IMG/VR virus record: IMGVR_UViG_2529292723_000018 | Origin: a virus | Lineage: Duplodnaviria; Heunggongvirae; Uroviricota; Caudoviricetes | Reading direction: 5' to 3' (one strand) | DNA length: 17,955 bases | Shown here: piece by piece, positions 289 to 17,955 of the stretch | Numbering within the stretch: the first letter of the stretch is position 1 | How the letters are laid out: the number at the start of each line of letters is the position of its first letter | Notes under the pieces: generated by a model | Seen by the model: only the letters and a program-made list of their open reading frames with translations | Database searches by the model: none | What the model was told of the DNA's origin: nothing | Program-made: the position numbers and the translations under genes

Positions 289-770
289 GCCTGTTTTGCG
301 ACCTCATTCACTACGTCATTTTTTACCATCCGGCTGATAATCTGATTACGCAAATCGTCAATAATTGACTGCACTCTGTTTACTGCCATCGGTTTAAGCC
401 CGGCATCACGTGCCAGAATATTGGGGAGTTTTGCCAGTTCCTCGCTTACGATTTCCCCCCATATAGCCATCTCTTTTCGCACATCATCGGCGGGTATGAG
501 TTGCGCCGTTTCCTGTTCGAACCTGAGGCGCTCACGTTCGGACTGATACCAGGCCTTACGGTCATGTGGCTCCATTTCTTCCAGTGATGCCGGAACGGGA
601 AGATCAAGAAAACAGGTCAGAATGTCAGTCACCCGATAGAGTTTTAGCTTGTCATGCCCTCCGGCTGGCTGGATGTTTTTCAGCCTTGCCGCCGCAGTCT
701 GACGACATATTCCCGCTATCGCCGCCAGTTGATTAATGTTCAGCATCAGATTTTTCAGTTCTCGATCCAT
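285..770 (-). CDS. lambda Nu1-like terminase small subunit / packaging-specificity protein (winged-HTH N-terminus)
   Basis: ORF-track start at 857 is a TTG; ATG at 770 preceded by GGAG gives MDRELKNLMLNINQLAAIAGICRQTAAARLKNIQPAGG..., which resembles the Nu1 N-terminus as I recall it (KKQLADIFGASIRTIQNWQEQGMPV..GGGKGNEVLY); lies directly downstream of a cos-like site, as Nu1 does in lambda. Confidence 0.55.
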   Translation of the reverse strand: MDRELKNLMLNINQLAAIAGICRQTAAARLKNIQPAGGHDKLKLYRVTDILTCFLDLPVPASLEEMEPHDRKAWYQSERERLRFEQETAQLIPADDVRKEMAIWGEIVSEELAKLPNILARDAGLKPMAVNRVQSIIDDLRNQIISRMVKNDVVNEVAKQA

Positions 771-904
771 ACCCGCTCCAGAATGTTTTAAACATGCATC
801 TTGCGAACAACTTTCAGAAGAGGTCAAAAAATGCGCTATATGTTGAGCATAAAACAAGCAAAATTAACATGCTAAAAATAAAAATACTTAAAATTCAATA
901 CAAT

Positions 905-997
905 GGAAAGATGATGATGACGAATGAAAATGCAAAAACTAGCCTTTTTCCGCGCCGCTCCCGCCCCGTGGCAGGTCACTACACCGGGAGGACCCGC
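905..997 (-). other. lambda-like cos site (cos1): cosN-like GC-rich core plus CATCATCAT cosB-like flank
   Basis: Minus strand reads CACGGGGCGGGAGCGGCGCGGAAAAAGGCTAGTTTTTGCATTTTCATTCGTCATCATCATC, which resembles the lambda left end (ACGGGGCGGCGACCTCGCGGGTTTTCGC...TTCGTCATAA) as recalled; sits between capsid 3' end and the Nu1-like gene. Confidence 0.55.
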
Positions 998-1020
998 AAA
1001 AAAAGGCGGCTATCGCCGCC
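998..1020 (-). terminator. rho-independent terminator downstream of capsid gene
   Basis: GGCGGC-tatc-GCCGCC hairpin (1005-1020) preceded on the + strand by a 7-A run, i.e. hairpin then T-run on the minus strand. Confidence 0.55.
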
Positions 1021-1027
1021 CTTGTTG

Positions 1028-2647
1028 TCATGCTCCACTCGATTTCAGTAATCCGCGATAGTCGAGGGCCGCGACACCTGCATCTATGCGCACCTTCCAG
1101 GCGACGCCATCAACAGTAAATCCCTCCTGCTCCTCAAGATATGGCGTATCAATACCATCAAGATAAGCGACCTCTATCGTGTCCATCCCCTTCGCCGCTG
1201 CCACATACCACTCCTTGTTATTGGCTTTATCAAGACGCGGCTCGACGATAACCTCTGCCATATCTTTCACCACGTTAATGATGCCGGGGTTCTGATTGAT
1301 AGTGCCTCCACCATCAATCGGAAAGAGTGATGACGATGACAGAATGGCGCGATGTGCGGCAGACTCCAGCGCAGCAGGGACCAGAACAAAAGCGGGGGTA
1401 ATATTCAGGGAGTCGCCGTTGCCATCCTCCTGTAATCGCATCAGCTTACGGGCTTCGTTAAGCCCCTCCATGTCCATATCCTTCGCAATAAGATTTTTAT
1501 GATCGGCATGGAATAACGCTTTACCATCCGTAAATTTGCCGTTGCTGGTTAACAGAAGATAAACCAGATTACCTACTGTTCTGGCGGCCGCACGCCCCAT
1601 CGCCATGGGGATTGTAGTTAACTGGGTCAGGTCATCGTTGATAATGGCCTGACGGGTAACAGAAAAAATATTACCGTATGTGGCCAGCGCAATAGGTACA
1701 CCTTTATCGCTGGTGGTGATGTATTTATATTCCGCACCTTCCGGTACTTTATCCAGCTTTGAAAAACCATTCAGACCAACGCGCTTTGCTTCATGAAAGT
1801 TTGAAAGCGATCCGGTACACGTCCATTTCTGGAACGTTTCGCCGCTGTCCTGCCAGCCTTTCAGCACTGATTTTTCAGCACCACCAGCCAGAATATGAGA
1901 AAAATCGCTGCTGCTGTGTGTGAAAGCTGCATTAACGACCTGCGAGCGATTTAAAAAATTGCCAACACTGATACCACGATCAGTTAGTGATGCCTGGGCC
2001 ATTTCAAAAAGGCTCATCATCGCGTAAGGATTTCCCCGCTCTGGGCGTTCATACCCGAGACGAGAATAAAGCCCCTGACGAATTGCATCGCCTGTTATGT
2101 TCCCGTTACCGGCATAAATATGAGTCGGGATATTTTTATTGGATGGCGTGGACTCGCGCCCCAGCTCGTTCAACAACTTTTCACGGGCCATCTCCGGTGT
2201 ACATGATGCATCCTCCAGGCACGCCATTTTGATCCCGTCGTAACGACTGCCGAACAGGCTAAACACTTCACTTATTCCGTTGATGCGCTTCTGTTCATTA
2301 CCAGCAATATTTGCCGCTCCCTGTGGCGGTGTAATCATTCCTTTAATGGTTTCCGGCATATGTAAAAAATCTCCTGTGCGTTTCGATTCAATTCGCGCCA
2401 TTACTCTGACGGATGGCAACAATTCATCAGCAAAACCGTGCTTAAGGCATTCTTTCCCATCCATCCAGGTTTCATCCTCCAGCATGGCGGTAATTTCCTG
2501 TGCTGATTTGCCCGTTTTTCTGGCATAAGCAGGGATTAACACGGTTTCCACCTTATCCAGCAAATCAGCATAATCACGCATATCGCCAGCATTTCCGCCA
2601 GAGATCCCCCACGGTTTATGGATCATCATGCAATACATTGAAATCAT
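1028..2647 (-). CDS. HK97-fold major capsid protein, C-terminal portion of a ClpP-like protease-capsid fusion; 5' part removed by insertion of element E2 (likely pseudogene fragment)
   Basis: About 80% protein identity by eye to residues ~104-638 of the intact fusion at 4671..6587; homology starts exactly at MMIHKPWGISGG; sequence upstream of 2629 is unrelated. Confidence 0.75.
   Translation of the reverse strand: MISMYCMMIHKPWGISGGNAGDMRDYADLLDKVETVLIPAYARKTGKSAQEITAMLEDETWMDGKECLKHGFADELLPSVRVMARIESKRTGDFLHMPETIKGMITPPQGAANIAGNEQKRINGISEVFSLFGSRYDGIKMACLEDASCTPEMAREKLLNELGRESTPSNKNIPTHIYAGNGNITGDAIRQGLYSRLGYERPERGNPYAMMSLFEMAQASLTDRGISVGNFLNRSQVVNAAFTHSSSDFSHILAGGAEKSVLKGWQDSGETFQKWTCTGSLSNFHEAKRVGLNGFSKLDKVPEGAEYKYITTSDKGVPIALATYGNIFSVTRQAIINDDLTQLTTIPMAMGRAAARTVGNLVYLLLTSNGKFTDGKALFHADHKNLIAKDMDMEGLNEARKLMRLQEDGNGDSLNITPAFVLVPAALESAAHRAILSSSSLFPIDGGGTINQNPGIINVVKDMAEVIVEPRLDKANNKEWYVAAAKGMDTIEVAYLDGIDTPYLEEQEGFTVDGVAWKVRIDAGVAALDYRGLLKSSGA
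2618..2629. repeat. left copy of 12-bp direct repeat ATGGATCATCAT (candidate att core, left junction of E2)
   Basis: Identical 12-mer at 12935..12946; both copies lie at the break points of the split protease-capsid gene and are in frame with it. Confidence 0.6.
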
Positions 2648-2696
2648 CCTACTGATAAATAAGATTAAAAATCACAATACAGATACGTTTGAGCTT

Positions 2697-2720
2697 CATT
2701 GCAATACGCATTGCAATACA
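2697..2720. repeat. tandem CATTGCAATAC(G/A) repeats near left end of E2 (candidate integrase arm-type or regulatory sites)
   Basis: Two tandem 12-mers; a near-identical tandem pair at 12781..12806 just upstream of the int start codon. Confidence 0.45.
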
Positions 2721-3069
2721 CGGTTGCTGGGTGATTTCAAAAGATGAATGCTGCGAAGGATGGAAATTTGGGAACTAGGTGGTGAATAGCACAACAAAAA
2801 ATCAGAATTCTACTAGCTTAAAATGATGCAAAAAGCATTCGTGGCATCGCAAGCGCTGTACAATTCGTTCTATAATGAAGAAAATTTCTAACAGACTTTA
2901 TCATTCAAAGGTGGAGGAGATGACAGCAATGCAACATGCATCACGCTCATACTTGAATTGTAAAGCTATCGTTAGAATCACAGCCTTTTTGTTCCGCTGA
3001 TCTAACGATAAAACTAGTGGTAAAAGGTATATTTTTTAATTTTTCAGACGCTGGCGCGGGGTAATTAAA

Positions 3070-3372
3070 ATGAAATTTGTAAATATACGGTCATCCGAGT
3101 TGCCTGAAATAGATACCTTTGTAAAAGAATGTATCAACCAAGGACAATGGACTCTTTTCAAGGCCGAGAAGGGTGCAGTTAATGATAATAAAGTTGCTTT
3201 TTTTCTAAAGGCTGGCAAAGATTTCTTTGCATTAAATAACAGAGGAAGTGTTATCTCTGTATTTCAATCATTAGATTATAATCTTGAAATGAATGAGGTA
3301 ATTCATTTTTCAGATATTCCTAAACCTGAATCGTTGAGCAATATTGCTAGCTTAGGATTTGCTAGAGTTTAA
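3070..3372 (+). CDS. hypothetical protein (100 aa), first gene of AT-rich cargo operon
   Basis: ATG at 3070; 18-bp gap to next gene on same strand; visibly AT-rich codon usage unlike the core genes; no recognised motif. Confidence 0.55.
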   Translation: MKFVNIRSSELPEIDTFVKECINQGQWTLFKAEKGAVNDNKVAFFLKAGKDFFALNNRGSVISVFQSLDYNLEMNEVIHFSDIPKPESLSNIASLGFARV

Positions 3373-3390
3373 TATATAAGGATATGTACG

Positions 3391-4281
3391 ATGGGATTAA
3401 TATCTGGAAATACACATTGGGTATTATTTTTACCTTGTGAGCACCAACCAGAAGATCGCCATGTTCAAGATTTAGTTCATGGCGTCTTTTGCTTAGAATC
3501 CTCAGGTATACAGCCATCTAATATTAGCATATATATTGATGGCCAAAATAGAGCCAACTTTAATAAGTTAATTTCGATTGCAACCCAACATAATTATACT
3601 ATCAAGCCTACATCTGAATTTTTCACCGACTGCGATACAAATAGTTATGAAAATCTAGTTATGTTTGTGACCGGACACGGAAGTATGAATGGTTTGGACT
3701 CTGCGCCGATCATAACCCCATACCGTTTATTGGACAGGTTAAAAAACACTCCTGTTCTCAAGCAAGCAATCGTTTATCTTGGTCAATGTTTCGCTGGTGT
3801 TTTCAACTACTTACCTGCTGGGCAGCGTAAGAGAGGTGAAGATGCCGACCCCGATGTCATTCTTATCGGGGCTACGAGTCTTCATGAAAGTTTGAGTAAT
3901 CCAACAACGGAAAATATTAATGGTATAGATTTTCCTTGGGTTGCAAATCAATTTTTATATCATGTATTTAAGTGGATATCATCCCCGAATGATATCGATG
4001 GGGATGGAAAACATACAGTAATTGACTCTTATAAGTATGCTGGAATCTCATCAAACATGACCAATCGTAGAATGAAGATAGGTTCTTTTGTAGCTTCGGT
4101 AGACTTGCATGAGCAATGGAATACTGCAAAAAAAGATCATGAAGCTAACTTGGCTGATCCACAAAAACTACTCCGTTATAGAGCATTAGATCAGCAATAC
4201 TATGAAAAACTGAACATTAACTATATTCATCAAGAGTGCTGGATATTAAATTCTGTACCTGCACAATCTGTTGAATTCTAA
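3391..4281 (+). CDS. predicted caspase-like (clan CD-type) cysteine peptidase, candidate His96/Cys133 dyad; candidate anti-phage effector
   Basis: TAAGGA Shine-Dalgarno 7 nt upstream; hydrophobic strand + His-Gly (NLVMFVTGHGS) and hydrophobic strand + Gln-Cys (AIVYLGQCFAGVF) 37 residues apart, the arrangement seen in caspase/legumain-type peptidases; AT-rich. Confidence 0.5.
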   Translation: MGLISGNTHWVLFLPCEHQPEDRHVQDLVHGVFCLESSGIQPSNISIYIDGQNRANFNKLISIATQHNYTIKPTSEFFTDCDTNSYENLVMFVTGHGSMNGLDSAPIITPYRLLDRLKNTPVLKQAIVYLGQCFAGVFNYLPAGQRKRGEDADPDVILIGATSLHESLSNPTTENINGIDFPWVANQFLYHVFKWISSPNDIDGDGKHTVIDSYKYAGISSNMTNRRMKIGSFVASVDLHEQWNTAKKDHEANLADPQKLLRYRALDQQYYEKLNINYIHQECWILNSVPAQSVEF

Positions 4282-4285
4282 TCCT

Positions 4286-4453
4286 TTACTTTTTTGAATA
4301 GATTGCTGCAAGTGCCGTTTTGAGGTCGTAATTTCGGCACTTGCAACTGCAACCAGAAATAGGGCGAACGTTTGACAAACGTTTAGCTATAGTCTGCCGA
4401 TGAAATCCAGTCACTTCCGCCAACTCACTTAAATTTAGAACTATCTTTTTCAT
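4286..4453 (-). pseudogene. remnant of Nu1-like terminase small subunit (55 codons, HTH portion only)
   Basis: Hand translation MKKIVLNLSELAEVTGFHRQTIAKRLSNVRPISG... parallels NINQLAAIAGICRQTAAARLKNIQPAGG of the 285..770 protein, then diverges; ends 4 bp from the stop of the convergent cargo gene; not in ORF track (under 60 aa). Confidence 0.45.
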
Positions 4454-4547
4454 CATAATTACCCTTCAGATGTCGAACAAATAACATACAATCCATCATC
4501 TTTTCCACTTTTATAAAGTTTTACCTAATAAAATTCAGTTAGTTAGC

Positions 4548-4632
4548 GAATGATGATGATGTCTATAAAATTCAAAAACTAGCCGTTTCCCGCGATGCCG
4601 CCGCCCCGTGGCAGGCATCCCCGCCGGGAGTA
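4548..4632 (-). other. lambda-like cos site (cos2) of element E2
   Basis: Minus strand reads CCACGGGGCGGCGGCATCGCGGGAAACGGCTAGTTTTTGAATTTT...CATCATCATCATTCG; same position (capsid 3' end to terminase remnant) as cos1. Confidence 0.55.
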
Positions 4633-4634
4633 CC

Positions 4635-4662
4635 TTTTAAAAAAGGGCAGCATCTGCCGCCC
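4635..4662 (-). terminator. putative rho-independent terminator after capsid gene
   Basis: Short GC hairpin (GGCAG/CTGCC) followed by a T-run on the minus strand. Confidence 0.4.
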
Positions 4663-4670
4663 TCCTGTCG

Positions 4671-6587
4671 TCATGCCGCCCCGCTCGACTTCACCATGCC
4701 CCGATAATCCAGCGCCGCCACGCCAGCATCGATACGCACCTTCCATGCAATACCGTCCACAGTGAAGCCCTCCTGCTGTTCCAGATACGGCACGTCCATT
4801 CCATCCAGATATGCCACCTCGATAGTGTCGGTGCCTTGCGCTGCAGTGACGTACCACTCCTTGTTGTTGGCCTTGTCCAGTCGCGGCTCAACCACTACCT
4901 GCGCCATATCCTTCACGACGTTGATAATGCCTGGGTTCTGGTTCAGCATACCGTTCTGGTCTACCGGGAACAGCGAAGATGATGACAGCACAGCTCGATT
5001 GGCTGCGCCTTCCAGCGCGGCAGGTACAAGGATATAGGCTGGGATAACATTAATAGGATCGCCGTTCGCATCCTCCTGCAGACGCATAGCCTTACGGGCC
5101 TCATTGAGTCCGTCTGTATCCATCCCTTTAGCGATGAGGTTTTTATGGTCGGCGTGGAACAACGCTTTACCATCTGTGAATTTGCTGTTGGCGGTCAGTT
5201 GCAGGTAGACCAGATTGCCAACCGTTCGTGCGGCGGCACGCCCCATTGCCTGTGGAATGGTCGTGAGCTGGCTCAGGTCATCGTTGATAATGGCCTGGCG
5301 TGTAACAGAGAAGATGTTTCCATAGGTGGCCAGCGCGATCGGCACACCGCTGTCGCTGGTAGTGACATATTTGTATTCAGCACCTTCCGGGACTTTATCC
5401 AGTTCTGAAAAACCATTCAGACCGACACGTTTAGCCTCATGGAAATTCGACAGAGAACCGGTCTTTGTCCACTGCTGGAAAGTTTCCCCGCTGTTCTGCC
5501 AGCCAGTCAGCACCGACTTTTCAGCACCACCAGCCAGGATATGAGAGAAATCACTGGTGCTGTGCGTAAATGCCAGGTTCACGATCTGCGAGCGATTCCC
5601 GAAACCACTGACGCTGATACCACGATCCACCAGCGAAGCCTGCGCCATTTCAAACAGACTCATCATGGCGTAAGGGTTTCCCCTTTCGGCGCGTTCGTGA
5701 CCCAGACGGGCAAAAAGCCCCTGGCGGATAGCATCGCCGGTAATGTTGCCGTTACCTGCGTAAATGTGCGCGTTACTGGTTTTATCCGATGGGGTCGAGG
5801 TCTTACCCAGTGCCGTCAGCAGCATGTCTTTTGCTTTTTCAGGCGTGCAATCCACATCCTCCAGACACTGCATCTTGAGAGAATCATGCTTGCCGCCGAA
5901 CATGGCAAACAGATCCTTAATCTCGTTGATGCGGTTCTGTTCCGGTACAGCGCTACTGGTGGAACCTTTCGGGCTGGTGATCATCCCTTTAATTTCTTTT
6001 GGCATATGCTCAAAATCCTCAATTCGTTTTGACTCAATACAGGCCATTGCCCTGACGGCGGGTAACAATTCGTCAGCAAAACCCTGCGCTACACATTCGC
6101 GGCCATCCATCCATGTTTCATCCTCCAGCATTTCCGCCAGTGATTCGGCTGATTTACCCGTTTTGCGTGCATATGCCGGGATCAAGACACTTTCGACTTT
6201 ATCCAGAAGTTCGGCGTAGTCGCGCATGTCGTTGGCGTTCCCACCAGAGATTCCCCACGGTTTGTGAATCATCATGAGTGCGTTTTCGGGCATAACGATA
6301 CGGTCGCCAGCCATTGCAATAACTGACGCCATAGACGCGGCGAGACCGTCGATCTGCACTGTAATTTTTGCCGGGTGTTTATTCAGAAGGTTATAGATAG
6401 CGATGCCGTCAAAAACATCGCCACCGGGTGAATGAATGTGCAGGCTGATATGGGAGATATCGCCTAGGGCTTTCAGGTCTTCGGAGAACTGCTGCGCCGT
6501 AATACCCCAGCCGCCGATCTCTTCGTAGATGCTGATATTGGCGCTGGTGCCATCGCTGGCCGCTTTGATGGTGTACCAGCCTTTCAT
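4671..6587 (-). CDS. ClpP-like prohead protease fused to HK97-fold major capsid protein (638 aa), intact
   Basis: ATG at 6587 with AAGGGGA Shine-Dalgarno; N-terminal ClpP-like motifs (GLAASMAS, MMIHKPWG); long C-terminal capsid-like region; ATGA overlap with upstream small gene. Confidence 0.85.
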   Translation of the reverse strand: MKGWYTIKAASDGTSANISIYEEIGGWGITAQQFSEDLKALGDISHISLHIHSPGGDVFDGIAIYNLLNKHPAKITVQIDGLAASMASVIAMAGDRIVMPENALMMIHKPWGISGGNANDMRDYAELLDKVESVLIPAYARKTGKSAESLAEMLEDETWMDGRECVAQGFADELLPAVRAMACIESKRIEDFEHMPKEIKGMITSPKGSTSSAVPEQNRINEIKDLFAMFGGKHDSLKMQCLEDVDCTPEKAKDMLLTALGKTSTPSDKTSNAHIYAGNGNITGDAIRQGLFARLGHERAERGNPYAMMSLFEMAQASLVDRGISVSGFGNRSQIVNLAFTHSTSDFSHILAGGAEKSVLTGWQNSGETFQQWTKTGSLSNFHEAKRVGLNGFSELDKVPEGAEYKYVTTSDSGVPIALATYGNIFSVTRQAIINDDLSQLTTIPQAMGRAAARTVGNLVYLQLTANSKFTDGKALFHADHKNLIAKGMDTDGLNEARKAMRLQEDANGDPINVIPAYILVPAALEGAANRAVLSSSSLFPVDQNGMLNQNPGIINVVKDMAQVVVEPRLDKANNKEWYVTAAQGTDTIEVAYLDGMDVPYLEQQEGFTVDGIAWKVRIDAGVAALDYRGMVKSSGAA

Positions 6588-6796
6588 TTTTCCCCTTCCG
6601 TTACAGCGAAGCCATTTTCATCAAGCCATGCGTTGACTGCGTGCCGGACTACCTGTGCCACTCCGGGCAATGGCTGGACAGGAAGATTTTTCAGATGATC
6701 GTTGCGGTATTGCTTAAGGCGTACAACGGTTTGCGCGTCCAGATGTACGGAGCCGCCTTTAGTCTCGCCAGTGTTTAAATCGTTAATGTCACTCAT
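6584..6796 (-). CDS. small conserved protein (70 aa) upstream of and translationally coupled to protease-capsid gene
   Basis: ATG at 6796 with AGAGGA Shine-Dalgarno (ORF-track start at 6844 is TTG); homolog at 13258..13464 (MSDINDLNTGE... vs MSCINDLNTGD...). Confidence 0.55.
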   Translation of the reverse strand: MSDINDLNTGETKGGSVHLDAQTVVRLKQYRNDHLKNLPVQPLPGVAQVVRHAVNAWLDENGFAVTEGEK

Positions 6797-6941
6797 GATG
6801 TCCTCTACTGTATAAGTAAACAGGTTATGATGATTGATCACCAAAAGTGGTAAGTGAACAATTTTTTATCTGAAAAATAGATTTATGATGAAAAAAAATT
6901 TTTGTATGGTCTTAGATTGGAATAAACAGAAAGGTTAAAAA

Positions 6942-7655
6942 ATGGATCTCACTCGTAATGACGAACTCCTTTTGAATGATGCAGCTAGACGCTCATTTCG
7001 GGATATGGCAGACCAGGATTATCTCTCAGCTCGTCTGTGTTATAAGCACAAATTGAATTTTCAATTTTTATGGCTTTCGCAACAAGCCGTAGAGAAATAT
7101 ATTAAAGCGATTTTACTTTATAATAGAGTTCCAGTATTAAAATTAAATCACAATTTAAACAAAGGGCTGGCAAAGATTAAAGAAATCCCATATCTTGAAT
7201 TAGACCTAGATGTAAAAAGTGAGCGATTCATAGATTATCTCAATGAGCAGGGCCCAAATAGATACTTCCAAAACACTATGTATACCGAAGGCTTTGAAAT
7301 TATAACCTTGGATAGAACCATCTGGGAATTAAGAAGATACTGCAAGCCACTAAACTACTCAATTACTAACCCAAAAGGTGAAGTGATAGAAATGTTAGAA
7401 CATGAATTGAGTAGCATAAAAAATTCGAAGTCGAGGCCTTATCATACGTTCAAACTATTTGGAGGTTACTTAGAAAAAAGATTAAAAGATAATAAATTCA
7501 ATCAGGGCGACATACTTACATGGAAAAATTTATTTTTTGGAAGAAATAAAAAAAATGCAATTAGAATTGGAAGATCAATGCATGTAACTCATCCAACTCA
7601 TTATATGTACCCAAATGCAACGGAAATGCTCAGTCGTTTCTTTAAAATAAAATAA
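6942..7655 (+). CDS. HEPN-like protein (tentative), candidate abortive-infection effector; AT-rich cargo
   Basis: N-terminal helix pair with QQAVEKYIKAILL resembling the HEPN QAxEKxLKA signature; R-x5-H (RIGRSMH) near C-terminus; opposite strand to flanking core genes. Confidence 0.5.
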   Translation: MDLTRNDELLLNDAARRSFRDMADQDYLSARLCYKHKLNFQFLWLSQQAVEKYIKAILLYNRVPVLKLNHNLNKGLAKIKEIPYLELDLDVKSERFIDYLNEQGPNRYFQNTMYTEGFEIITLDRTIWELRRYCKPLNYSITNPKGEVIEMLEHELSSIKNSKSRPYHTFKLFGGYLEKRLKDNKFNQGDILTWKNLFFGRNKKNAIRIGRSMHVTHPTHYMYPNATEMLSRFFKIK

Positions 7656-7744
7656 TTACATTCCAATTTTATTTACCGCTGTTAAATAAGTAAGGTATAT
7701 CTTTATTTATCGACATTGATAATCATGAAAGAGTATATCTTTTT

Positions 7745-7960
7745 TGCCGCACCTAGCGCATTTCTCACCGCACTTTCATCCCGCGCACTTAGGTGCGCAA
7801 TCCAACATGCACCGTACAGCCATTAAAACCAGTAATGGGGCGGGTTTGCAGGTGATTAATGCCAAACCGCGCACTTTCTTCGTATATACATGGAAAAAGT
7901 GCGGCAAGTGTATGTTTTATGAGCATTTCGCGCATCACGCGCATTTCTTGCCGCACTTTT
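7745..7960. repeat. iteron-like repeat cluster (TTGCCGCAC / CGCACTTT / GCGCATTTC, direct and inverted); candidate origin for the E2 replication protein
   Basis: TTGCCGCAC at 7745 and 7949, its complement at 7900; CGCACTTT four times; GCGCATTTC at least twice; lies immediately 3' of the replication gene, as the TGTTCACC iterons do in E1. Confidence 0.45.
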
Positions 7961-7964
7961 CAGG

Positions 7965-9374
7965 TTAAATTATCGTGATATCTCCTGAATCATCGATAAA
8001 GATAATATTCTCCCTAACGAGTTTATCAAGCCAGCGTTTAAAACCTTTGCGGCCGTTCTCTCCAAACAGAGTGGTAATATCATCACGTATAACAGAGACA
8101 TTACACGGTTCACCTTTGGCTTTTCGGCTCCGGATTGACTGCCAGAGTGCAGCGTGGTTCCCAGTCAGGTGCTTGATATCAGCAAGTTCCGGATCAGGTT
8201 CTCGTGCCTCTCGTGGCAGGTCCTGCACCACCAGCGACGAAATAAGCTCACCATCACGATCTGTGAACAATTCGATCGGACGCAGATCGAATGCGGCCTG
8301 TTTCGGCTCCTCCGCATCTTTCATCTTCGTACAGGTCAGGATTATCGCCCCACCATCCCCCTCGCGCCGGACATTGAACTCTGCATCGAGCGCAGCCCTG
8401 AAAGCACTGGAACCACGTGCGCCTTTGGTATCGTCTTTTCCTGAATGATGCACCACCAGCAACGTGGCGCCAGTCTCACGCTTGATGACGTCGCAGCCTT
8501 CAATAAACGCCCCCATGTCACGAGCATCGTTTTCATCGTTACCACCAAAGCACCGCGCTAGAGTATCTATGACAATCAGGCGAACCGGCTGCCCCGTTTT
8601 GGACTTAACGTCACGCGCAGCTTTGATCATCTCCTGCATTTCCTCACGGCGAACCGGGAAAACCGGACGGTTTACCAGATACAGATTATTTAGTTTCACA
8701 CCATGTTTTTTCTCCCACGCCTTTATTCGCCGCGGAACGCCAATACCACCTTCACCTACTACGTACATCACAGCGCCGGCTGATACCGACTTCCCCGCCC
8801 ACTTCATCCCGGCTGCAACGTGACAAGCCCAGGACACCGCCAGAAAACTTTTATACGAACCGCTCGGGCCGTAGATACTGCTCAGGCTGTTAGCGGGAAG
8901 ATAACTTTTTAACGTGTAATCCTGCTCCTGATCGTACCCATCAGAGCCCACGCTTAAAGGAAGGCTGTGCCGCAGTGACTCCTCTCGCACAGAGACTTCA
9001 ACCTGTTCACGCAGACGAGAAAGATATTCCCTCCAGTCCTCAGGCTCATGGTCGGGGATTCCTTTATACAATTTGGCATCCTGCACGCCAGCCAGCGCCA
9101 GCTTTTCAGCAATGTTATTAATCTGGATAGGCTTTATATTCCCTGCCAGGTAAATCCGCACGGCACGACGGCCATCATCCACAATGCGCAGGTTATCCAG
9201 CTCTGCCAGTTGTTTTGGCCCAAGGTAAACAGGAGGAGTGGTATCTTCGGCAATCTGTTTACCAAGCCCCTCTTCCCAACCCTTCGCATGGGCGTATGCT
9301 TCTGACCCGGCAAAAATAACTGCCTCCGTGAATTTTTCTTTTGGCAGGTGTTTCAGATTCGGTGCGTTTTTCAT
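7965..9374 (-). CDS. replication protein: N-terminal domain shared with the P4-family primase at 14246..16063 plus AAA_25/RecA-like ATPase (pri-rep type)
   Basis: ATG at 9374 with AAGGGG Shine-Dalgarno; deviant Walker A (YGPSGSYKSF); LLVVHHSGKD...RGSSA motif typical of RepA-like ATPases; first ~110 aa align with the E1 primase (KxAPNLKH...). Confidence 0.75.
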   Translation of the reverse strand: MKNAPNLKHLPKEKFTEAVIFAGSEAYAHAKGWEEGLGKQIAEDTTPPVYLGPKQLAELDNLRIVDDGRRAVRIYLAGNIKPIQINNIAEKLALAGVQDAKLYKGIPDHEPEDWREYLSRLREQVEVSVREESLRHSLPLSVGSDGYDQEQDYTLKSYLPANSLSSIYGPSGSYKSFLAVSWACHVAAGMKWAGKSVSAGAVMYVVGEGGIGVPRRIKAWEKKHGVKLNNLYLVNRPVFPVRREEMQEMIKAARDVKSKTGQPVRLIVIDTLARCFGGNDENDARDMGAFIEGCDVIKRETGATLLVVHHSGKDDTKGARGSSAFRAALDAEFNVRREGDGGAIILTCTKMKDAEEPKQAAFDLRPIELFTDRDGELISSLVVQDLPREAREPDPELADIKHLTGNHAALWQSIRSRKAKGEPCNVSVIRDDITTLFGENGRKGFKRWLDKLVRENIIFIDDSGDITII

Positions 9375-9694
9375 TTCAGCCCCTTATCCCATCCGTCAGA
9401 TCCAACACTCAGCGGCAGAGAAGAGCGCAGAGCAGCGATTTTTTTACGCACGTTTTCTTTTCCGGTCTCCTGCCACTCCCTGCTTTCCTCAGGGAGATAA
9501 ATAAATTCTTTTCGGAACCGGTACTCAGAAAAAATACACTCATGTGAATACCCATCCCGGACATACGTAATACGGCTATCCGTTATGCATGTGACAGTAA
9601 TTTTTTCTCCGCGAGAATCTTTCCAGCGACTGTTAAGCTCGATTTTTGGTTGAGCGATGCCCTCAAGCTGAACCTGATTGAATTTTTTAATCAT
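9371..9694 (-). CDS. small protein (107 aa), homolog of 16060..16359; C-terminal tail resembles the primase linker
   Basis: ATGA overlap with primase start; YVRDGYSHECIF vs YFIRDGYSFHSS in the E1 homolog; C-terminal LRSSLPLSVGSDGWD matches primase LRHSLPLSVGSDGYD. Confidence 0.55.
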   Translation of the reverse strand: MIKKFNQVQLEGIAQPKIELNSRWKDSRGEKITVTCITDSRITYVRDGYSHECIFSEYRFRKEFIYLPEESREWQETGKENVRKKIAALRSSLPLSVGSDGWDKGLK

Positions 9695-9698
9695 GAAT

Positions 9699-9878
9699 TT
9701 ATTCCTTGTCGGTAGCCGTTAAACCGTATGCTTCAGCAGCCTGACGAACTGCCTGGATAAAACCTTCCGGTGTGGCCACGATTTCGTCCGGACGAAGGCG
9801 GCGCTCTGTAACCTGACCGTTTTTAACCGTCACCAGTACGCGGATCTCGTAATCAGCAGGTAAGGCGGAGTTATCCAT
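9699..9878 (-). CDS. small hypothetical protein (59 aa from internal ATG)
   Basis: ORF-track frame 9699..10004; upstream part overlaps the better-supported gene 9871..10158, so start placed at ATG 9878. Confidence 0.3.
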
Positions 9879-10158
9879 GGCGCCCCTCCATTGGCACAGC
9901 TTCATTGCTGTAAGGATCGCTACCCAAGATGCTCCATAGGGTGCGATGTTCAGGATCCATAAACGACACTGAGAGCGGGCTTTCTGTTCGGATTTTGGCG
10001 GCAAAGGTCAAGTCCCAGCCGCAGAACTTTGCACGGGCAGTATCTTCAGTGTCTGCAATGGTGCGCAGAACTATCGGGAGACAAGAGTGACCTCGCGGCG
10101 TGCCAAGGAATAGCCATGTAAATTTTGGGCGAGTTTGGGTATGCTGTTGATCAGCCAT
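9871..10158 (-). CDS. small protein (95 aa), first gene of leftward operon; homolog of 16679..16883
   Basis: ATG at 10158 with GAGGT Shine-Dalgarno; shared KFTW motif and downstream pattern with the E1 homolog. Confidence 0.5.
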
Positions 10159-10190
10159 AACTGTTACCTCAACTAACGGTTTGTGGTTAG

Positions 10191-10239
10191 ACGTCCCGTG
10201 AGTGGTTCCAAGCACTTCCGGGACGTTGCTTTTTTCACG
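10191..10239. promoter_or_regulatory. conserved stem-loop (ACGTCCCG / CGGGACGT, 20-nt loop) followed by T-run, at the 5' end of the leftward operon
   Basis: Same structure at 16919..16965 in E1 with a compensatory pair (T-A replaced by C-G). Confidence 0.45.
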
Positions 10240-10248
10240 TCAAGCGTG

Positions 10249-10298
10249 ATAACGTACGTACGTAATAGCAACATCCTATGAGGTTACGTACGTACATG
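10249..10298. promoter_or_regulatory. two palindromic operator-like sites (ACGTACGTACGT core) between divergent RHH gene and leftward operon
   Basis: TAACGTACGTACGTAATA and TTACGTACGTACATG about 34 bp apart; second overlaps the start region of the RHH gene. Confidence 0.5.
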
Positions 10299-10487
10299 TC
10301 AACAATAAAACGAGATAAAACACCCAAAGGAGAGGGCTTGTCTCCGACATTCCAAATCCGAATAAGTCCTGAATTGCGCCAGCAGATGAATGAAGCTGCT
10401 GAGCGTGAGGGAGTAAGTCTTGGTAATTGGCTTAAAGGTCTGGCTAGAAATGAACTTATTAAGCAAGGAATTGAACCTAAAGGTTAG
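10278..10487 (+). CDS. ribbon-helix-helix (Arc/CopG-like) transcriptional regulator, candidate E2 repressor
   Basis: RISPELRQQMNEAAEREGVSLGNWLKGLARNEL fits a beta-strand plus two helices; true start may be ATG 10296 (MSTIKRDK); adjacent to palindromic operators. Confidence 0.6.
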   Translation: MRLRTYMSTIKRDKTPKGEGLSPTFQIRISPELRQQMNEAAEREGVSLGNWLKGLARNELIKQGIEPKG

Positions 10488-10540
10488 TTTTCACAAGCAC
10501 TCTTTGATTTTTTCAGTAAAAATTAAATTAAGGAAATTCT

Positions 10541-11251
10541 ATGGATGATTTATATACACCATCTGAATATTTTATGTTCGTAGAGAAATTTGATCATTAC
10601 TTCCCACGAAAAAGCCCTTTTAACTCATTATTATTCGAGTTCAATTATAGATTAGAAGATATAGTTGTTTTTCATCGCTTTGTTATCAACACCTATTCAA
10701 AAAATAAAAAAGCAATTGATGTACAATATAATAAATTTAATTTTCTTGATGATAAACAAAAAAATTCCCTTTCTGATGACGAGTATGAAGCGTATCAACT
10801 CAGGTTTGCAAGGCATATGGAATACATTAACCATCAAACTGATTTGAATGAAAAAGCGTCTTACATTGCTAACGATAGTGTCGTTATAAACTTATGGGCC
10901 ATGAATGAACAATATATGACTAGAGGATTGGCCAACCTAATATCTCAAAAAGAAAATAAAAATTTAAATGAAGTTAAAACGCCTTACAAATGGGATACAA
11001 TCAAAAGTAAATTCCTGTCATATGGAATCAACTTTGAGACATTGCCATCTTATGATGACATTAATGAATGTAGAGTACTGAATAATAAAATAAAACATCT
11101 GAACATAGTAGATTCTGGTTTAGAAGTTTTCCCTCCCTTCAAAGGTAAGCTTAACGAATCACTTACTGGCATGGCCTTTCCTCTTCAAAAATATATCATA
11201 GGCTCTCATCACTTTATAGGAATGCTATTAGAAGAGTGCTCATTAAAATAA
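10541..11251 (+). CDS. hypothetical protein (236 aa), AT-rich cargo in the RHH-alpA slot
   Basis: AAGGA Shine-Dalgarno; AT-rich, Asn/Lys/Ile-rich; the same slot in E1 holds only a 62-aa ORF; no recognised motif. Confidence 0.55.
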   Translation: MDDLYTPSEYFMFVEKFDHYFPRKSPFNSLLFEFNYRLEDIVVFHRFVINTYSKNKKAIDVQYNKFNFLDDKQKNSLSDDEYEAYQLRFARHMEYINHQTDLNEKASYIANDSVVINLWAMNEQYMTRGLANLISQKENKNLNEVKTPYKWDTIKSKFLSYGINFETLPSYDDINECRVLNNKIKHLNIVDSGLEVFPPFKGKLNESLTGMAFPLQKYIIGSHHFIGMLLEECSLK

Positions 11252-11255
11252 ACGC

Positions 11256-11292
11256 ATGGCAACGTATAATTTATCGCTTAATACGTTGCCAT
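11256..11292. terminator. 12-bp perfect inverted repeat (ATGGCAACGTAT / ATACGTTGCCAT, 13-nt loop) between convergent genes
   Basis: Lies between the stop of 10541..11251 (+) and the stop of alpA (-); no strong T-run, so terminator function is uncertain. Confidence 0.4.
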
Positions 11293-11297
11293 ATCTC

Positions 11298-11543
11298 TCA
11301 TTTATTTTTATCGAACCAATCTCCTTTAATCCAAGCTTGCATCTCTGAGAGCCGGTAAGCAACTGCTGACGGCCCAATTTTGATTCGCTTAGGAAATTTT
11401 CCTTCCTGTTCCATGCGCCAGCGCGTTGAGTTAGACAACGTAGTCATAGCCCGGCATTCAGGTTCGCGAATCATTCTGTCAAGGTCAGGCATGTACTGGA
11501 GATCTTCTTTTTTCACAACGGATAACATAGCCATATCAGGCAC
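11298..11543 (-). CDS. alpA: AlpA-family excisionase / transcriptional regulator
   Basis: MIREPECRAMTTLSNSTRWRMEQEGKFPKRIKIGPSAVAYRLSEMQAWI matches the AlpA pattern as recalled; start may be the internal ATG at 11492; 8-bp overlap with int. Confidence 0.8.
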   Translation of the reverse strand: MPDMAMLSVVKKEDLQYMPDLDRMIREPECRAMTTLSNSTRWRMEQEGKFPKRIKIGPSAVAYRLSEMQAWIKGDWFDKNK

Positions 11544-12771
11544 TCCTTTTCTTAATTACTTTTACTGTATTTTCTTCACCCACCAGCCCATCAAGGTAGT
11601 CAACCCATCGGTCCAGTGCTTCTTGCTTTTGAGGGATATACTTGCTGCGGTTATAGACTCCGGCCACGCCCTTTATGGTATGCCCCAGCAGCTGCTCTAC
11701 GACCATAAAATCAACGCCCATATCGTTAAGGCTTGTCGAGAACGTTCGTCTCAAATCATGTAATGACCAGCGTTTTTCATGTTTCAGAGAGATAAAGTTT
11801 GTGCATCCCATCGTACTGACGGTTGAATCAGATTTCAGTTCGCCAAATATGTAGCCTCTCCTTTTAGTCTCTTCGTGCAGGTTTACGATCCACTGGCGCA
11901 TTTTTTGAGGAACGGGGCGAATAATTTCTTCGCCGTTTTTACTGTGCTCTTTAGGTACTGTCCAAATCCACTTATCGAAATCCCACTCATCCCATGTAGA
12001 TAAACGCGCCTCACTCAGCCTGCAGCCAAACACGAGACACAAAATCGCCATCCTTTTTTTGTAATTCATTACACGGGTTTTGCCTTTACCATGAAAGTAC
12101 ACTCCCCACAGATCGGCGACGTAGCTTTCCTCAAGTAGCCGCTCTCTCTTGTTCTGATACTTACCGATATCACCAGGGCTCAAATCATCAAGCACATTGC
12201 ACCGCACATACTGGCGCACCCGGCAGTATTTGAAGATCTGCTTTAACTCAATCAGCATTGCAGCAGACTGAACCGGCGCGATTTTCTTTATGCGGTCGAA
12301 GCACTTGATCCAGTCTGACAGACCGCATTTCTCGACAGGAAACCCGCCGATGTAGGGAAAAATGTATCTCTCATAACGGCGATAGAGCCGTAAAGTCTCT
12401 TTGCGCTTTTCCCTGGCATAGTTATCAAACCAGTAATCGATAGCGTTCTTCACAGTTACTGGAGTGAACAGGTTCTCTTTGGTGAGTTTGTTCTCTATTC
12501 GTGGGTCGAGTCCCTGAGATAGCCATGCCCGGCACTCGTCCCTTTTCTCTCTGGCCTGTTTAAGGGTCATATCTGGATACTTGCCTAACGTCATCCAGAC
12601 GGGGGCGCTTTGTCGGCCGGAATGTCTGAAGAAATACACAAAGCTCACAGTGCCACTAACGCTCACTCTGACAGACAGTCCACGACCATCTGCCACCATC
12701 TTTTGACGCGGCTGGGGTTTACCATGTAAGGCCTTTAACGCCTTGTCGCTTAACTTGTTCTCGCCCGCCAT
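11536..12771 (-). CDS. int: P4-type tyrosine integrase
   Basis: N-terminal arm-binding pattern (GRGLSVRVSVSGTVSFVYFF...LGKYPDMTLKQAREKR); C-terminal catalytic-region motifs LHDLRRTF and LLGHT...VYNRSKY; adjacent to right junction of E2. Confidence 0.9.
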   Translation of the reverse strand: MAGENKLSDKALKALHGKPQPRQKMVADGRGLSVRVSVSGTVSFVYFFRHSGRQSAPVWMTLGKYPDMTLKQAREKRDECRAWLSQGLDPRIENKLTKENLFTPVTVKNAIDYWFDNYAREKRKETLRLYRRYERYIFPYIGGFPVEKCGLSDWIKCFDRIKKIAPVQSAAMLIELKQIFKYCRVRQYVRCNVLDDLSPGDIGKYQNKRERLLEESYVADLWGVYFHGKGKTRVMNYKKRMAILCLVFGCRLSEARLSTWDEWDFDKWIWTVPKEHSKNGEEIIRPVPQKMRQWIVNLHEETKRRGYIFGELKSDSTVSTMGCTNFISLKHEKRWSLHDLRRTFSTSLNDMGVDFMVVEQLLGHTIKGVAGVYNRSKYIPQKQEALDRWVDYLDGLVGEENTVKVIKKRSA

Positions 12772-13258
12772 AAAACCTCATTCTGCAATACACATTGCAA
12801 TACACACTTAACTGCAACGCCGAAAAACAGTAGAAAAGCAATGCAAACAACACCTCTTCTTTCTTCATAATTAACAATAAGTTAATGAATGAATACGGTT
12901 CTTCATGCGTACCCATGAGGTAGTGTGAAGGATAATGGATCATCATCATGGCGTTCTCCGGCATCACTACACGATCGCCAGCCATTGCGACCACCGAAGC
13001 CATTGAAGCCGCAACACCATCGATATAAACCGTAATGTCTGCCGGATGATTCCGTAGCAGGTTATAGATGGCGATGCCTTCAAACACATCACCACCTGGT
13101 GAATGGATCCTCAGATTGATATGTGAAACATCGCCAAGGGCTTTCAGGTCTTCCGCGAACTGCTTTGCAGTAACACCGAAGCCGCCAATCTCCTCATAGA
13201 TAGATATATCCGCCGCTCCACGAACATCCGCCGCCTTAATGGTGTACCAGCGATTCAT
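12719..13258 (-). CDS. N-terminal fragment of ClpP-like prohead protease (first 108 codons authentic; remainder is read-through into E2 DNA); disrupted gene
   Basis: MNRWYTIKAA...GVAASMASVVAMAGDRVVMPENAMMMIH is about 75% identical by eye to the N-terminus of the intact fusion, then diverges at the 12-bp repeat. Confidence 0.7.
   Translation of the reverse strand: MNRWYTIKAADVRGAADISIYEEIGGFGVTAKQFAEDLKALGDVSHINLRIHSPGGDVFEGIAIYNLLRNHPADITVYIDGVAASMASVVAMAGDRVVMPENAMMMIHYPSHYLMGTHEEPYSFINLLLIMKKEEVLFALLFYCFSALQLSVYCNVYCRMRFYGGREQVKRQGVKGLTW
12781..12806. repeat. tandem TGCAATACA repeats 10 bp upstream of int start
   Basis: CTGCAATACACATTGCAATACACAC; matches the tandem pair at 2697..2720. Confidence 0.45.
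12935..12946. repeat. right copy of 12-bp direct repeat ATGGATCATCAT (candidate att core, right junction of E2)
   Basis: Identical to 2618..2629; protease homology begins exactly here on the minus strand. Confidence 0.6.
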
Positions 13259-13464
13259 TATTCCCCCACCGATGCAAAACCATTCTGATTAAGCCAGGTG
13301 TTTACGGCATGTCTGACAATCTGCGCCACACCTGGTAATGGTTTGTCAGGATGATGATTTATATGGTCGATCCTGTACTGCTTAAGGCGCATAACGGTCT
13401 GCGCATCCAGATGAACGGAACCACCCCTGATATCGCCCGTGTTCAGGTCATTAATACAACTCAC
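13258..13464 (-). CDS. small conserved protein (68 aa), homolog of 6584..6796; GTG start
   Basis: GTG at 13464 with AGAGGA Shine-Dalgarno; stop overlaps protease ATG by 1 nt. Confidence 0.5.
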   Translation of the reverse strand: MSCINDLNTGDIRGGSVHLDAQTVMRLKQYRIDHINHHPDKPLPGVAQIVRHAVNTWLNQNGFASVGE

Positions 13465-13564
13465 AGTAACTTCCTCTTACTGACTAAACTGTGCACATTA
13501 TTGATCGATAAAAGTGGTAAATAAATATATTTCTATCATAAAAATAGATTAATCAGATTCAGAC

Positions 13565-13776: not shown

Positions 13777-13848
13777 ATGAAAATGCAAAAACCAGCCTTT
13801 TTCCGCGACGCTCCCGCCCCGTGGCAGGTCACTACACCGGGAGGACCC
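13777..13848 (-). other. cos-like segment (cos3), about 72 bp near-identical to cos1 but lacking the CATCATCAT cosB-like flank
   Basis: Two mismatches to cos1 across the cosN-like core; flanking sequence differs immediately beyond GCATTTTCAT. Confidence 0.5.
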
Positions 13849-13850
13849 AT

Positions 13851-13878
13851 AAAAAAGCCGGATTGCTCCGGCTTCTGT
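13851..13878 (-). terminator. rho-independent terminator
   Basis: GCCGGA-ttgc-TCCGGC hairpin with a 6-A run on its + strand 5' side. Confidence 0.5.
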
Positions 13879-16918: not shown

Positions 16919-16965
16919 ACGCCCCGTATGTGTTTCCGGCACTGCGGGGCGTTGCTCTTTGTATT
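16919..16965. promoter_or_regulatory. conserved stem-loop (ACGCCCCG / CGGGGCGT), counterpart of 10191..10239
   Basis: Same position relative to the leftward operon; compensatory base-pair change versus the E2 copy. Confidence 0.45.
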
Positions 16966-16978
16966 TCAACAATCCTTT

Positions 16979-17058
16979 CGGTGTGTTTCATGTTATGAGC
17001 GCATGAAACACACGTCAAGGCTTTTTGTATTTCTTTTTTTGTGTATACTGAAACACAC
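16979..17058. promoter_or_regulatory. palindromic operator-like sites (GTGTGTTTCATG-N9-CATGAAACACAC, plus a GAAACACAC half-site)
   Basis: Perfect 12-bp inverted repeat upstream of the RHH gene; half-site repeated at 17050; sequence unrelated to the E2 operators. Confidence 0.5.
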
Positions 17059-17079
17059 CGATGATTAGGAGTTTCAGAA

Positions 17080-17385
17080 ATGGCAACGGCTAACAAAAAC
17101 GCAAAATCACAACTGACAACTGTCAGAGTCCCACTAGATGTTATGCAAGGGATGGAATCCGTTAAGCTGGACGGCGAAAGCAATGCCGGATTTATCGTAA
17201 CCGCCATGCGCGGAGAAATAGCCCGCCGCCAAGCAGAAGGCAGCGGAGAAAATCCCCTTGTGTCGTCACTGGATGCCCTGGCTAAGGTCGAACAAATCGG
17301 CATCAAAGCAGCGGAAGAAATCGGGCAGCTTGTCACCGTTGCACGCGAAGAACTCCAGCGTCGCAAGACCAAAGAACCAGAGTAA
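17080..17385 (+). CDS. ribbon-helix-helix-like transcriptional regulator, candidate E1 repressor
   Basis: AGGAG Shine-Dalgarno; N-terminal TVRVPLDVMQGMESV...FIVTAMRGEIARR fits strand plus two helices; positional counterpart of 10278..10487. Confidence 0.55.
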   Translation: MATANKNAKSQLTTVRVPLDVMQGMESVKLDGESNAGFIVTAMRGEIARRQAEGSGENPLVSSLDALAKVEQIGIKAAEEIGQLVTVAREELQRRKTKEPE

Positions 17386-17442
17386 TCACCATCAGCGCCG
17401 TGGTGTAAGGTATTACGGCGCATTGCTATGCAGGACAACACA

Positions 17443-17616
17443 ATGACCGATAAAGAATTGACCAAAACATTATCACCGGCACGGAAAAGACGGCGCAGAA
17501 AGATAGAGCATGAATCAGAAAGATTCGCGCCATGTGCTTTTGCTCTTGAGAAATTCCTTAAAGAGCACAGGAAAAAGCTCTCGTTGCAAACCTTGGAACG
17601 AACCAAATCTGACTGA
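17443..17616 (+). CDS. small basic hypothetical protein (about 57 aa)
   Basis: ORF 17428..17616 with AGGA upstream of the internal ATG at 17443; RKRRRRK stretch; occupies the slot that holds the 236-aa cargo in E2. Confidence 0.35.
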   Translation: MTDKELTKTLSPARKRRRRKIEHESERFAPCAFALEKFLKEHRKKLSLQTLERTKSD

Positions 17617-17730: not shown

Positions 17731-17955
17731 TTACGCTGCCTTACCTGAATTAACGCGGTCACGGCTTTGCACCCAGTCCATAACTTCGGAAAGCAACCAG
17801 CCTACAGAACGCCCCCCAAGATTACGGCGAGACGGAAAGCCCCCTTTCTTCTCCAGTTCGTAGCGTGTAGTACGGCTGACGCCTGTTAACTTACGACATT
17901 CATCCTCACGAATTACGCGATCTGTTAGTGATTGAAATTGTGTATTTTGATTCAT
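17731..17955 (-). CDS. alpA: AlpA-family excisionase / transcriptional regulator of E1 (integrase expected beyond the window)
   Basis: ATG exactly at the window end; RVIREDECRKLTGVSRTTRYELEKKGGFPSRRNLGGRSVGWLLSEVMDW parallels the E2 AlpA. Confidence 0.75.
   Translation of the reverse strand: MNQNTQFQSLTDRVIREDECRKLTGVSRTTRYELEKKGGFPSRRNLGGRSVGWLLSEVMDWVQSRDRVNSGKAA

Follow-up and report, generated by a model that had tools for sequence, protein, structure and literature searches.

A swappable cargo gene beside alpA in a satellite nested within another satellite: ORF236, a candidate HEPN-like anti-phage protein

Gram-negative phage-inducible chromosomal islands (PICIs) follow a plan of four zones: an integration zone with int and alpA, a dynamic 'Bro' zone, a replication zone and a late zone (PMC10111431). 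In helper-embedded PICIs (HE-PICIs), the integrase belongs to a clade directed at phage late genes (Tommasini, Mageeney & Williams 2023, PMC10111431), and in 24 cases the site, C:CLP_protease:110, lies within a PICI at tRNA-Ile2, which gives a 20.6-kb composite (PMC10111431). Antiviral hotspots adjacent to the integrase are established for P4 and P2-related phages, and the cargo of P4 and P2 hotspots was shown to act against competitors (PMC9122126). Here we describe a stretch of viral DNA of 17,955 nucleotides (IMG/VR record IMGVR_UViG_2529292723_000018, Caudoviricetes), called the window below, all positions being counted along its whole length unless another locus is named. It is the published composite, in which a PICI at tRNA-Ile (E1) has its ClpP/capsid gene occupied by an HE-PICI (E2) (PMC10111431), and our subject is an open reading frame (ORF) of 236 amino acids (aa), ORF236, located in E2 between a small regulator gene and alpA. 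The slot that holds it is the dynamic zone after alpA, already published in general terms (PMC10111431); since both the element and the zone have been described, only the protein family, which is unnamed, is new. Comparing related satellites, we showed that the interval between regulator and alpA is a real cargo hotspot and that ORF236 is a rare, horizontally acquired passenger of this variable zone. The features on which the argument rests are as follows.

10254-10265 (GTACGTACGTAA) and 10284-10295 (TTACGTACGTAC): operator candidate, a 12-bp perfect inverted repeat upstream of the regulator gene and abutting its start.
10296-10487, + strand: ribbon-helix-helix (RHH) regulator, HicB/Arc-like, 63 aa from the RefSeq start or 69 aa from the first ATG at 10278.
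10541-11251, + strand: ORF236 cargo gene, 711 bp, 236 aa, encoding a 28-kDa protein predicted to be all-alpha, of an unnamed and putatively HEPN-like family.
11066-11098, + strand: codons for E176-C-R178-V-L-N181-N182-K-I-K185-H186, the signature of the family, with which predicted helix 171-186 ends C-terminally.
11256-11267 (ATGGCAACGTAT) and 11281-11292 (ATACGTTGCCAT): hairpin with a 12-bp perfect stem and a 13-nt loop, between ORF236 and alpA.
11298-11543, - strand: alpA of E2, of the excisionase/activator family (PF05930, 3.8e-14).
11536-12771, - strand: tyrosine integrase of E2, 411 aa (Pfam Arm-DNA-bind_3 and Phage_integrase), of the clade targeting phage late genes.

A first-pass annotation, made from the letters of the window, had noticed that the interval between regulator and alpA holds an AT-rich 236-aa ORF in E2 (10541-11251) and a basic 62-aa ORF in E1 (17428-17616), coordinates that we confirm, and it had proposed a cargo hotspot, which the comparison of loci bears out. 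An integrase scan of the genome collection gave only 2 loci, and a distant BLASTN search in E. coli genomes was used instead; the survey of cargo covered 22 loci that have alpA and an integrase either related or of identical length, among which at least 9 cargo sets occupy the slot. Between the window and a Klebsiella satellite, nucleotide identity is 90-97% in the RHH/operator region, 58-75% over 10500-11300 and 85-94% from 11350, the RHH proteins being identical and the ORF236 proteins 72% identical with saturated synonymous sites. In Rahnella and Kluyvera satellites, the alpA-int DNA is 86-87% identical (93% for the integrase protein) and can be aligned only as far as the 3' end of alpA; their slots contain unrelated genes, either a pair of 285 aa and 179 aa or a 395-aa DUF5677 protein. 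Sharp drops in identity mark two points, the RHH stop and the 3' end of alpA. Sampling 12 E. coli satellites of a sister integrase clade revealed six further cargo sets, including those listed here, besides ORF236-family genes.

178-aa protein: six loci.
305-aa protein: two loci.
SWIM protein accompanied by a DUF2971 protein or by one of 265 aa: two loci.
CAP12/Pycsar-type TIR protein: PF10137, 1.2e-33; PADLOC PDC-S35, 6.9e-67.
putAbiC protein, right after a HicB-like RHH gene: PF16872, 2.8e-16.
L040 2580-3455 and L042 2789-3472: the slots with TIR or putAbiC, in E. coli satellites inserted in a lambda-type capsid gene.

The slot presents two of the features by which defence hotspots are recognised, namely different genes between conserved flanks and the presence of recognised defence genes (TIR, putAbiC). 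Among 5426 complete E. coli genomes, the E2 allele of ORF236 was found in 5 and a 241-aa allele in 4, against 248 carrying a related alpA-int, and this rarity disposes of the alternative, raised in the first-pass annotation, that ORF236 might be a conserved core gene of such satellites. On the Rahnella slot itself (L022 9307-9846), the 179-aa protein displays a canonical R-N-K-L-G-H motif; neither it nor its 285-aa partner has a Pfam or PADLOC match, and the two may constitute another unnamed HEPN-type two-gene system.

ORF236 is a real gene, subject to purifying selection (nonsynonymous pN of 0.18-0.25 versus a saturated synonymous pS of 0.80-0.86, against four homologues), and its GC content of 0.305 (30.5%) contrasts with the 0.45-0.53 of alpA, int, RepA and capsid genes. 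Its close relatives form 14 clusters in 5.8 billion proteins, and a profile search of 1.84 billion representatives extended the family to 342 clusters (E<=1e-3); a tblastn search against 50,697 phage records gave no match. In every satellite examined, the relatives come after a small regulator, on the same strand and next to alpA. The replication modules that accompany them vary (RepA AAA_25 or D5-type primase), as do the capsid modules. A relative with 62% identity lies after int at the end of a P2/186-like prophage, where no such regulator precedes it, and more distant ones occur by themselves, near a Tn3-family transposon and in the accessory regions of two plasmids (an IncFII plasmid and one from Acinetobacter). 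Distant relatives also adjoin GmrSD, a Schlafen-type helicase and MazG. Because the same slot can hold TIR and putAbiC genes in other satellites, and because relatives are found near the int of a P2/186-like prophage and beside GmrSD, Schlafen and MazG, ORF236 appears to be defence-type cargo and is, judging from this company, most likely an anti-phage gene.

The first-pass annotation had seen no motif that it could name in the 236-aa protein, which has no match in Pfam, PADLOC, PHROGs or NCBIfam. Searching the 98 family members against Pfam, PADLOC and PHROGs gave scattered single matches, apart from PADLOC RTasHEPN, which matched 3 of the 98; for the member with the best value (P0097, 1.6e-4), the match covers residues 90-163, beginning at the glutamate of helix 2 and ending at the histidine of the motif. 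The AlphaFold2 model of ORF236 is all-alpha with a pLDDT of 94.5, and its long helices extend over residues 25-63, 79-137, 171-186 and 215-235. In an alignment of 93 sequences, N182, K185 and H186 are invariant and E123, E176, R178 and N181 are conserved at 90% or more. E123 is located within helix 79-137, the second long helix, an insert (138-170) separates the second and third helices, and H186 is the final residue of helix 171-186. The published description of HEPN domains places an acidic residue within helix 2, an insert between this helix and the next, and an R...H motif where helix 3 ends, and variants of the motif exist (PMC3710099). E123, the insert at 138-170 and the motif whose last residue is H186 agree in their placement with this description and suggest that ORF236 is HEPN-like. 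The stretch N181-N182-x3-H186 may also be read as mimicking R-N-x3-H, with N replacing R. Other routes were less informative: the family profiles A1 and A3 gave nothing or coiled-coil noise against PDB sequences, a word-indexed search with the 93-sequence profile returned 22 proteins only, all unnamed, and the domain fusions of four longer family members gave no clue to function. Similarly, profile-profile comparison (hhalign) of the family with the 179-aa protein of the Rahnella slot, a RiboL-PSP HEPN protein, the HEPN-domain protein encoded elsewhere in the window and a DUF4145 protein yielded nothing significant.

The reading that we prefer, and to which we give about an even chance, is that ORF236 is a moron in the accessory zone of the HE-PICI, encoding a HEPN-type ribonuclease (RNase) that serves as an anti-phage or competition effector. 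Several results weigh against it. No Pfam HEPN profile matches ORF236 or any of the 98 family members, and the absence of a PADLOC match for ORF236 itself counts in the same direction. A comparison by hhalign with a RiboL-PSP HEPN alignment of 34 sequences gave a probability of 0.2%, which is not significant, and the best Foldseek values were E 0.64 in the PDB and 5.3e-03 in BFVD, with nothing at E<=0.001. The invariant motif R178-x2-N-N-x2-K-H186 has an R-to-H spacing of 7, outside the canonical R-x4-6-H, in which the R is followed by a polar residue. Moreover, a consensus scan called no + strand sigma-70 promoter upstream of the RHH gene, and most of the other slot cargo has no family match at all. 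Because Pfam HEPN profiles, hhalign and Foldseek give no support and the spacing is 7, the chances that ORF236 is a HEPN-like RNase, as its predicted helices and motif suggest, are roughly balanced.

The small protein upstream of ORF236 is identified as an RHH DNA-binding protein by its matches to Pfam HicB (1.9e-05, 24.9 bits for a cut-off of 21), to a PHROG Arc-like repressor (5.9e-05) and to NCBIfam YlcI_YnfO_N (2.5e-06). It is labelled HicB family antitoxin in RefSeq, and the RHH protein of the Klebsiella satellite (L002) is 100% identical to it. The inverted repeat at 10254-10295, unrelated to the 12-bp repeat downstream of ORF236, overlaps a sigma-70-like promoter (TTGACA-18-TAGGAT, 10302 to 10273) directed leftward, towards the Icd-like/replication operon, and the half-site varies together with the RHH variant across loci (ACGTACGT vs AGGTGTGTACCT). 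The promoter overlap and the half-sites that differ with the RHH variants fit an operator through which the RHH protein would act as the satellite's repressor. One more element stands between this operon and the regulator gene.

10191-10226: GC-rich hairpin (inverted repeat I5), then TTGCTTTTTT, between the Icd-like operon and the RHH gene.

Alignment A5 shows this hairpin conserved across six loci, together with two compensatory changes of base pairs. It has no Rfam family match and could be a leader, terminator or immunity RNA element of the replication operon.

The order of the two genes, a small DNA-binding gene then a larger one, is typical of type II toxin-antitoxin addiction pairs, and an antitoxin-toxin pairing had been envisaged in the first-pass annotation. 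In such a pair, the HicB-like RHH protein would neutralise an ORF236 toxin, autoregulate the operon and stabilise the satellite. Adjacency on the same strand with a short gap, a palindromic operator candidate at a promoter, a Pfam HicB match above threshold and the RefSeq name all agree with this scheme, but the distribution of both partners argues against it. The same RHH family is present whatever the cargo, since it also precedes SWIM, putAbiC and DUF5677 genes, while ORF236 relatives of 63-72% identity follow non-homologous regulators (DUF3950/YlcI types) in Yersinia (DUF3950) and Enterobacter, and the relatives in the P2-like prophage, near the Tn3-family transposon and on the two plasmids have no such partner. 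Regulator and cargo thus assort independently among the loci compared, and no conserved antitoxin-toxin co-occurrence was seen. HicA, the usual partner of HicB, is absent, ORF236 matches neither HicA nor another toxin family, and the operator candidate overlaps a promoter facing the replication operon, as expected for the satellite's own repressor. Since some relatives, on plasmids and in a P2-like prophage, have no RHH gene beside them, we hold a dedicated toxin-antitoxin pair to be very improbable and favour a fixed satellite regulator followed by a swappable gene which borrows its transcript.

Two other explanations accept that the gene is not a toxin of this type. ORF236 might serve the life cycle of the satellite, as an induction sensor or regulator or as a factor interfering with the helper, in the manner proposed for the regulatory proteins of the 'Bro' zone. 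In Gram-negative PICIs, domain-swapping regulatory proteins and immunity functions belong to this zone (PMC10111431), and in every satellite examined an ORF236-type gene stands beside the regulator and alpA; yet the gene is lacking in the majority of satellites sharing the integrase, alpA and replication modules, occurs with different replication and capsid modules, has relatives in a P2-like prophage and in plasmids, which have no satellite life cycle, and shows no DNA-binding or Bro-N domain match, so that we consider a life-cycle role quite unlikely. Alternatively, ORF236 could be cargo without RNase activity, namely an anti-defence or host-modulating helical protein whose conserved motif would be a partner-binding surface. 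Such a protein would account for the lack of a significant sequence link to any HEPN family and for the weak fold evidence, and several HEPN-like domains are indeed non-catalytic (PMC3710099). The invariant R, N, N, K and H with the conserved glutamate, across 93 sequences that are 15-36% identical, are more typical of a catalytic site, and the motif is placed at a helix end as in HEPN RNases; we therefore hold this alternative to be unlikely, and a swappable HEPN-type effector of defence or competition remains the reading that we prefer.

How ORF236 would be expressed can be proposed from the organisation of the locus. The gene starts 53 bp past the RHH gene on the same strand, with no terminator between them, and it is convergent with alpA and int. 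From the shared strand, the 53-bp gap and the lack of an intervening terminator, ORF236 is probably co-transcribed with the regulator and made together with it in the resident satellite. The 12-bp perfect inverted repeat said by the first-pass annotation to bound the gene does exist, but it does not flank ORF236: both arms are 3' of its stop, forming one hairpin inside the 46-bp spacer between the convergent stop codons. This hairpin folds whichever strand is considered, at -16 and -22 kcal/mol (z about -4.8), and in L002, L006, L014 and L020 (Klebsiella, E. coli, Raoultella and Yersinia) the same spacer contains a hairpin of other sequence, with z from -4.3 to -6.3. A consensus terminator scan did not call it; its folding and conserved position make it a likely bidirectional terminator.

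Beyond a swappable gene beside defence-type cargo, we infer every step of the mechanism that we propose, from co-transcription to the HEPN assignment, the RNase activity and the role in defence. The RHH protein would repress the leftward replication promoter of the satellite while being itself expressed in the resident state, and ORF236 would ride on the RHH transcript, ending at the hairpin that it has in common with alpA. The protein, a predicted bundle of four long helices, would be a divergent HEPN-type metal-independent RNase, latent until phage infection, which it would then abort, acting either as a single-gene abortive infection system or as an effector in the competition between elements. 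ORF236 would thereby protect the satellite, the host and possibly the helper from competitors, which is how cargo of P4 and P2 hotspots was shown to act (PMC9122126). A more ambitious proposal, which we advance only tentatively, is that ORF236 founds an undescribed single-protein anti-phage system, defined by a long-helix HEPN-like RNase with a non-canonical E-x-R-x2-N-N-x2-K-H site, carried as a swappable cassette by HE-PICIs, P2-like prophages and plasmids and expressed from a satellite maintenance operon.

As for the genomic setting, E1 and E2 are not two equivalent tandem elements: E2 lies within E1, inserted in its capsid-protease gene. In E. coli chromosomes, matches to the window are located beside a tRNA-Ile gene, with mug and nfeF on the two sides. 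E1 has its ClpP-protease/capsid fusion gene split, the N-terminal part running from 13258 down to ~12936 and the C-terminal part from ~2630 down to 1028, and by self-BLAST the pieces 906-2630 and 12936-13553 align to the intact gene of E2. The two junctions carry the copies of the attachment (att) core.

2618-2629: left att core copy, ATGGATCATCAT, 12 bp, inside the ClpP part of the E1 capsid-protease gene.
12935-12946: right att core copy, ATGGATCATCAT, 12 bp; E2 spans ~2630-12934.

ATGGATCATCAT is the longest exact repeat common to both E2 junctions, and the splitting of the E1 gene at these direct repeats shows that E2 is a satellite inserted within another satellite and that the window is no tandem array. 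With its int and alpA module, its insertion within a late gene and its short att identity block, E2 has the attributes of an HE-PICI, and its place of insertion agrees with the published C:CLP_protease:110 (PMC10111431). In Yersinia, the same 411-aa integrase type adjoins a truncated prophage ClpP protease gene, followed by portal and terminase genes, and the sister integrase clade adjoins a truncated lambda-type major capsid gene in ~240 E. coli genomes. An Rfam scan of the window and the slot found no C4 or isrK RNA.

The equivalent interval of E1 is composed as follows.

17080-17385, + strand: YlcI/YnfO-type regulator of E1, 101 aa.
17428-17616, + strand: basic 62-aa ORF of E1 (isoelectric point 10.1, 17 K+R; phrog_21027, 1.9e-14).
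17731-17955: alpA of E1 (PF05930, 4.8e-16).

In E. coli 90-9280 (NZ_CP024240), the sequence is 99.6% identical to the window up to 16950 and then diverges. The regulator/slot region of E1 is polymorphic (16950-17612), with the 101-aa YlcI protein and the 62-aa ORF here and a 60-aa YlcI protein without the 62-aa ORF in 90-9280. The E1 of this strain also carries, at an unusual position for cargo between an alpA-like gene and the integrase (L001 21504-22220), a 238-aa protein with no family match; considered as an ORF236 relative, it was dropped, the two sequences having no resemblance.

The window contains other AT-rich cargo besides ORF236. A second spot (6942-7655, GC 0.33), between the capsid module and the RepA helicase gene, encodes a 237-aa HEPN-domain protein (PF05168, 1.6e-05), and the equivalent spot is occupied in Klebsiella by a 237-aa protein and in Raoultella by a DUF4145 protein. 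A third block (3070-4281, GC 0.36), at the distal end of E2, encodes a 100-aa protein (phrog_30138, 7e-25) and a 296-aa protein without match in Pfam, PADLOC, PHROGs or NCBIfam; the latter has TGHGS and GQCFAG stretches, which may resemble a caspase-type His/Cys pair. Finally, an 80-bp sequence is repeated in E1 with 95% identity (924-1003 and 13777-13856), and a 78% copy occurs just downstream of the E2 capsid gene (4567-4643); this repeat could be a packaging or regulatory site.

Satellite and prophage hotspots are a productive source of new anti-phage systems. We found no report in the literature of the HE-PICI slot having been mined for defence genes, a literature search for the RefSeq accession WP_000342533 was negative, and most of the slot cargo has no known function. 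For the ORF236 family, which counts several hundred clusters, none of Pfam, PADLOC, PHROGs and NCBIfam provides a model. ORF236 is a reasonable and cheap candidate for a new single-gene defence system. Should it prove an active RNase with an R-x7-H site, the sequence definition by which HEPN enzymes are recognised would be widened; should it have no phenotype, it would be an ordinary hypothetical passenger gene in a composite already described.

Compared with known systems, the window is closest to the published HE-PICI-in-PICI (PMC10111431), with which it shares the ClpP site, the tRNA-Ile2 location and the order int and alpA, dynamic zone, replication and late (capsid) zones. It departs from that description in two respects: Bro-network proteins and immunity RNAs dominate the published dynamic zone, whereas the zone of E2 holds an RHH gene and an unrelated 236-aa protein on the opposite strand, and the invaded PICIs were reported without alpA, whereas E1 possesses a gene of the AlpA family (17731-17955). 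The likeness to HicAB is confined to the upstream RHH protein, which passes Pfam HicB and is annotated as a HicB family antitoxin; there is no HicA here, and the RHH gene is fixed in the satellite while the downstream gene is variable. With regard to the HEPN RNases of abortive infection and toxin systems (PMC3710099; RiboL-PSP HEPN, toxins 5yep and 8xdj), in which the R-to-H spacing is 4-6, ORF236 has a spacing of 7, much longer helices (236 aa vs ~130), no MNT or other partner and no profile-level match. None of the validated P2/P4 systems included in PADLOC matches ORF236, and E2 differs from P4 in being a PICI with alpA, its slot being flanked by an RHH regulator and alpA. Nevertheless, the P4 psu-int and P2-related hotspots (Rousset et al. 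2022, PMC9122126) resemble this slot in that they occupy a fixed place by the integration module and carry differing AT-rich cargo of one or a few genes, often for defence, and one ORF236 relative is itself situated next to int in a P2/186-like prophage.

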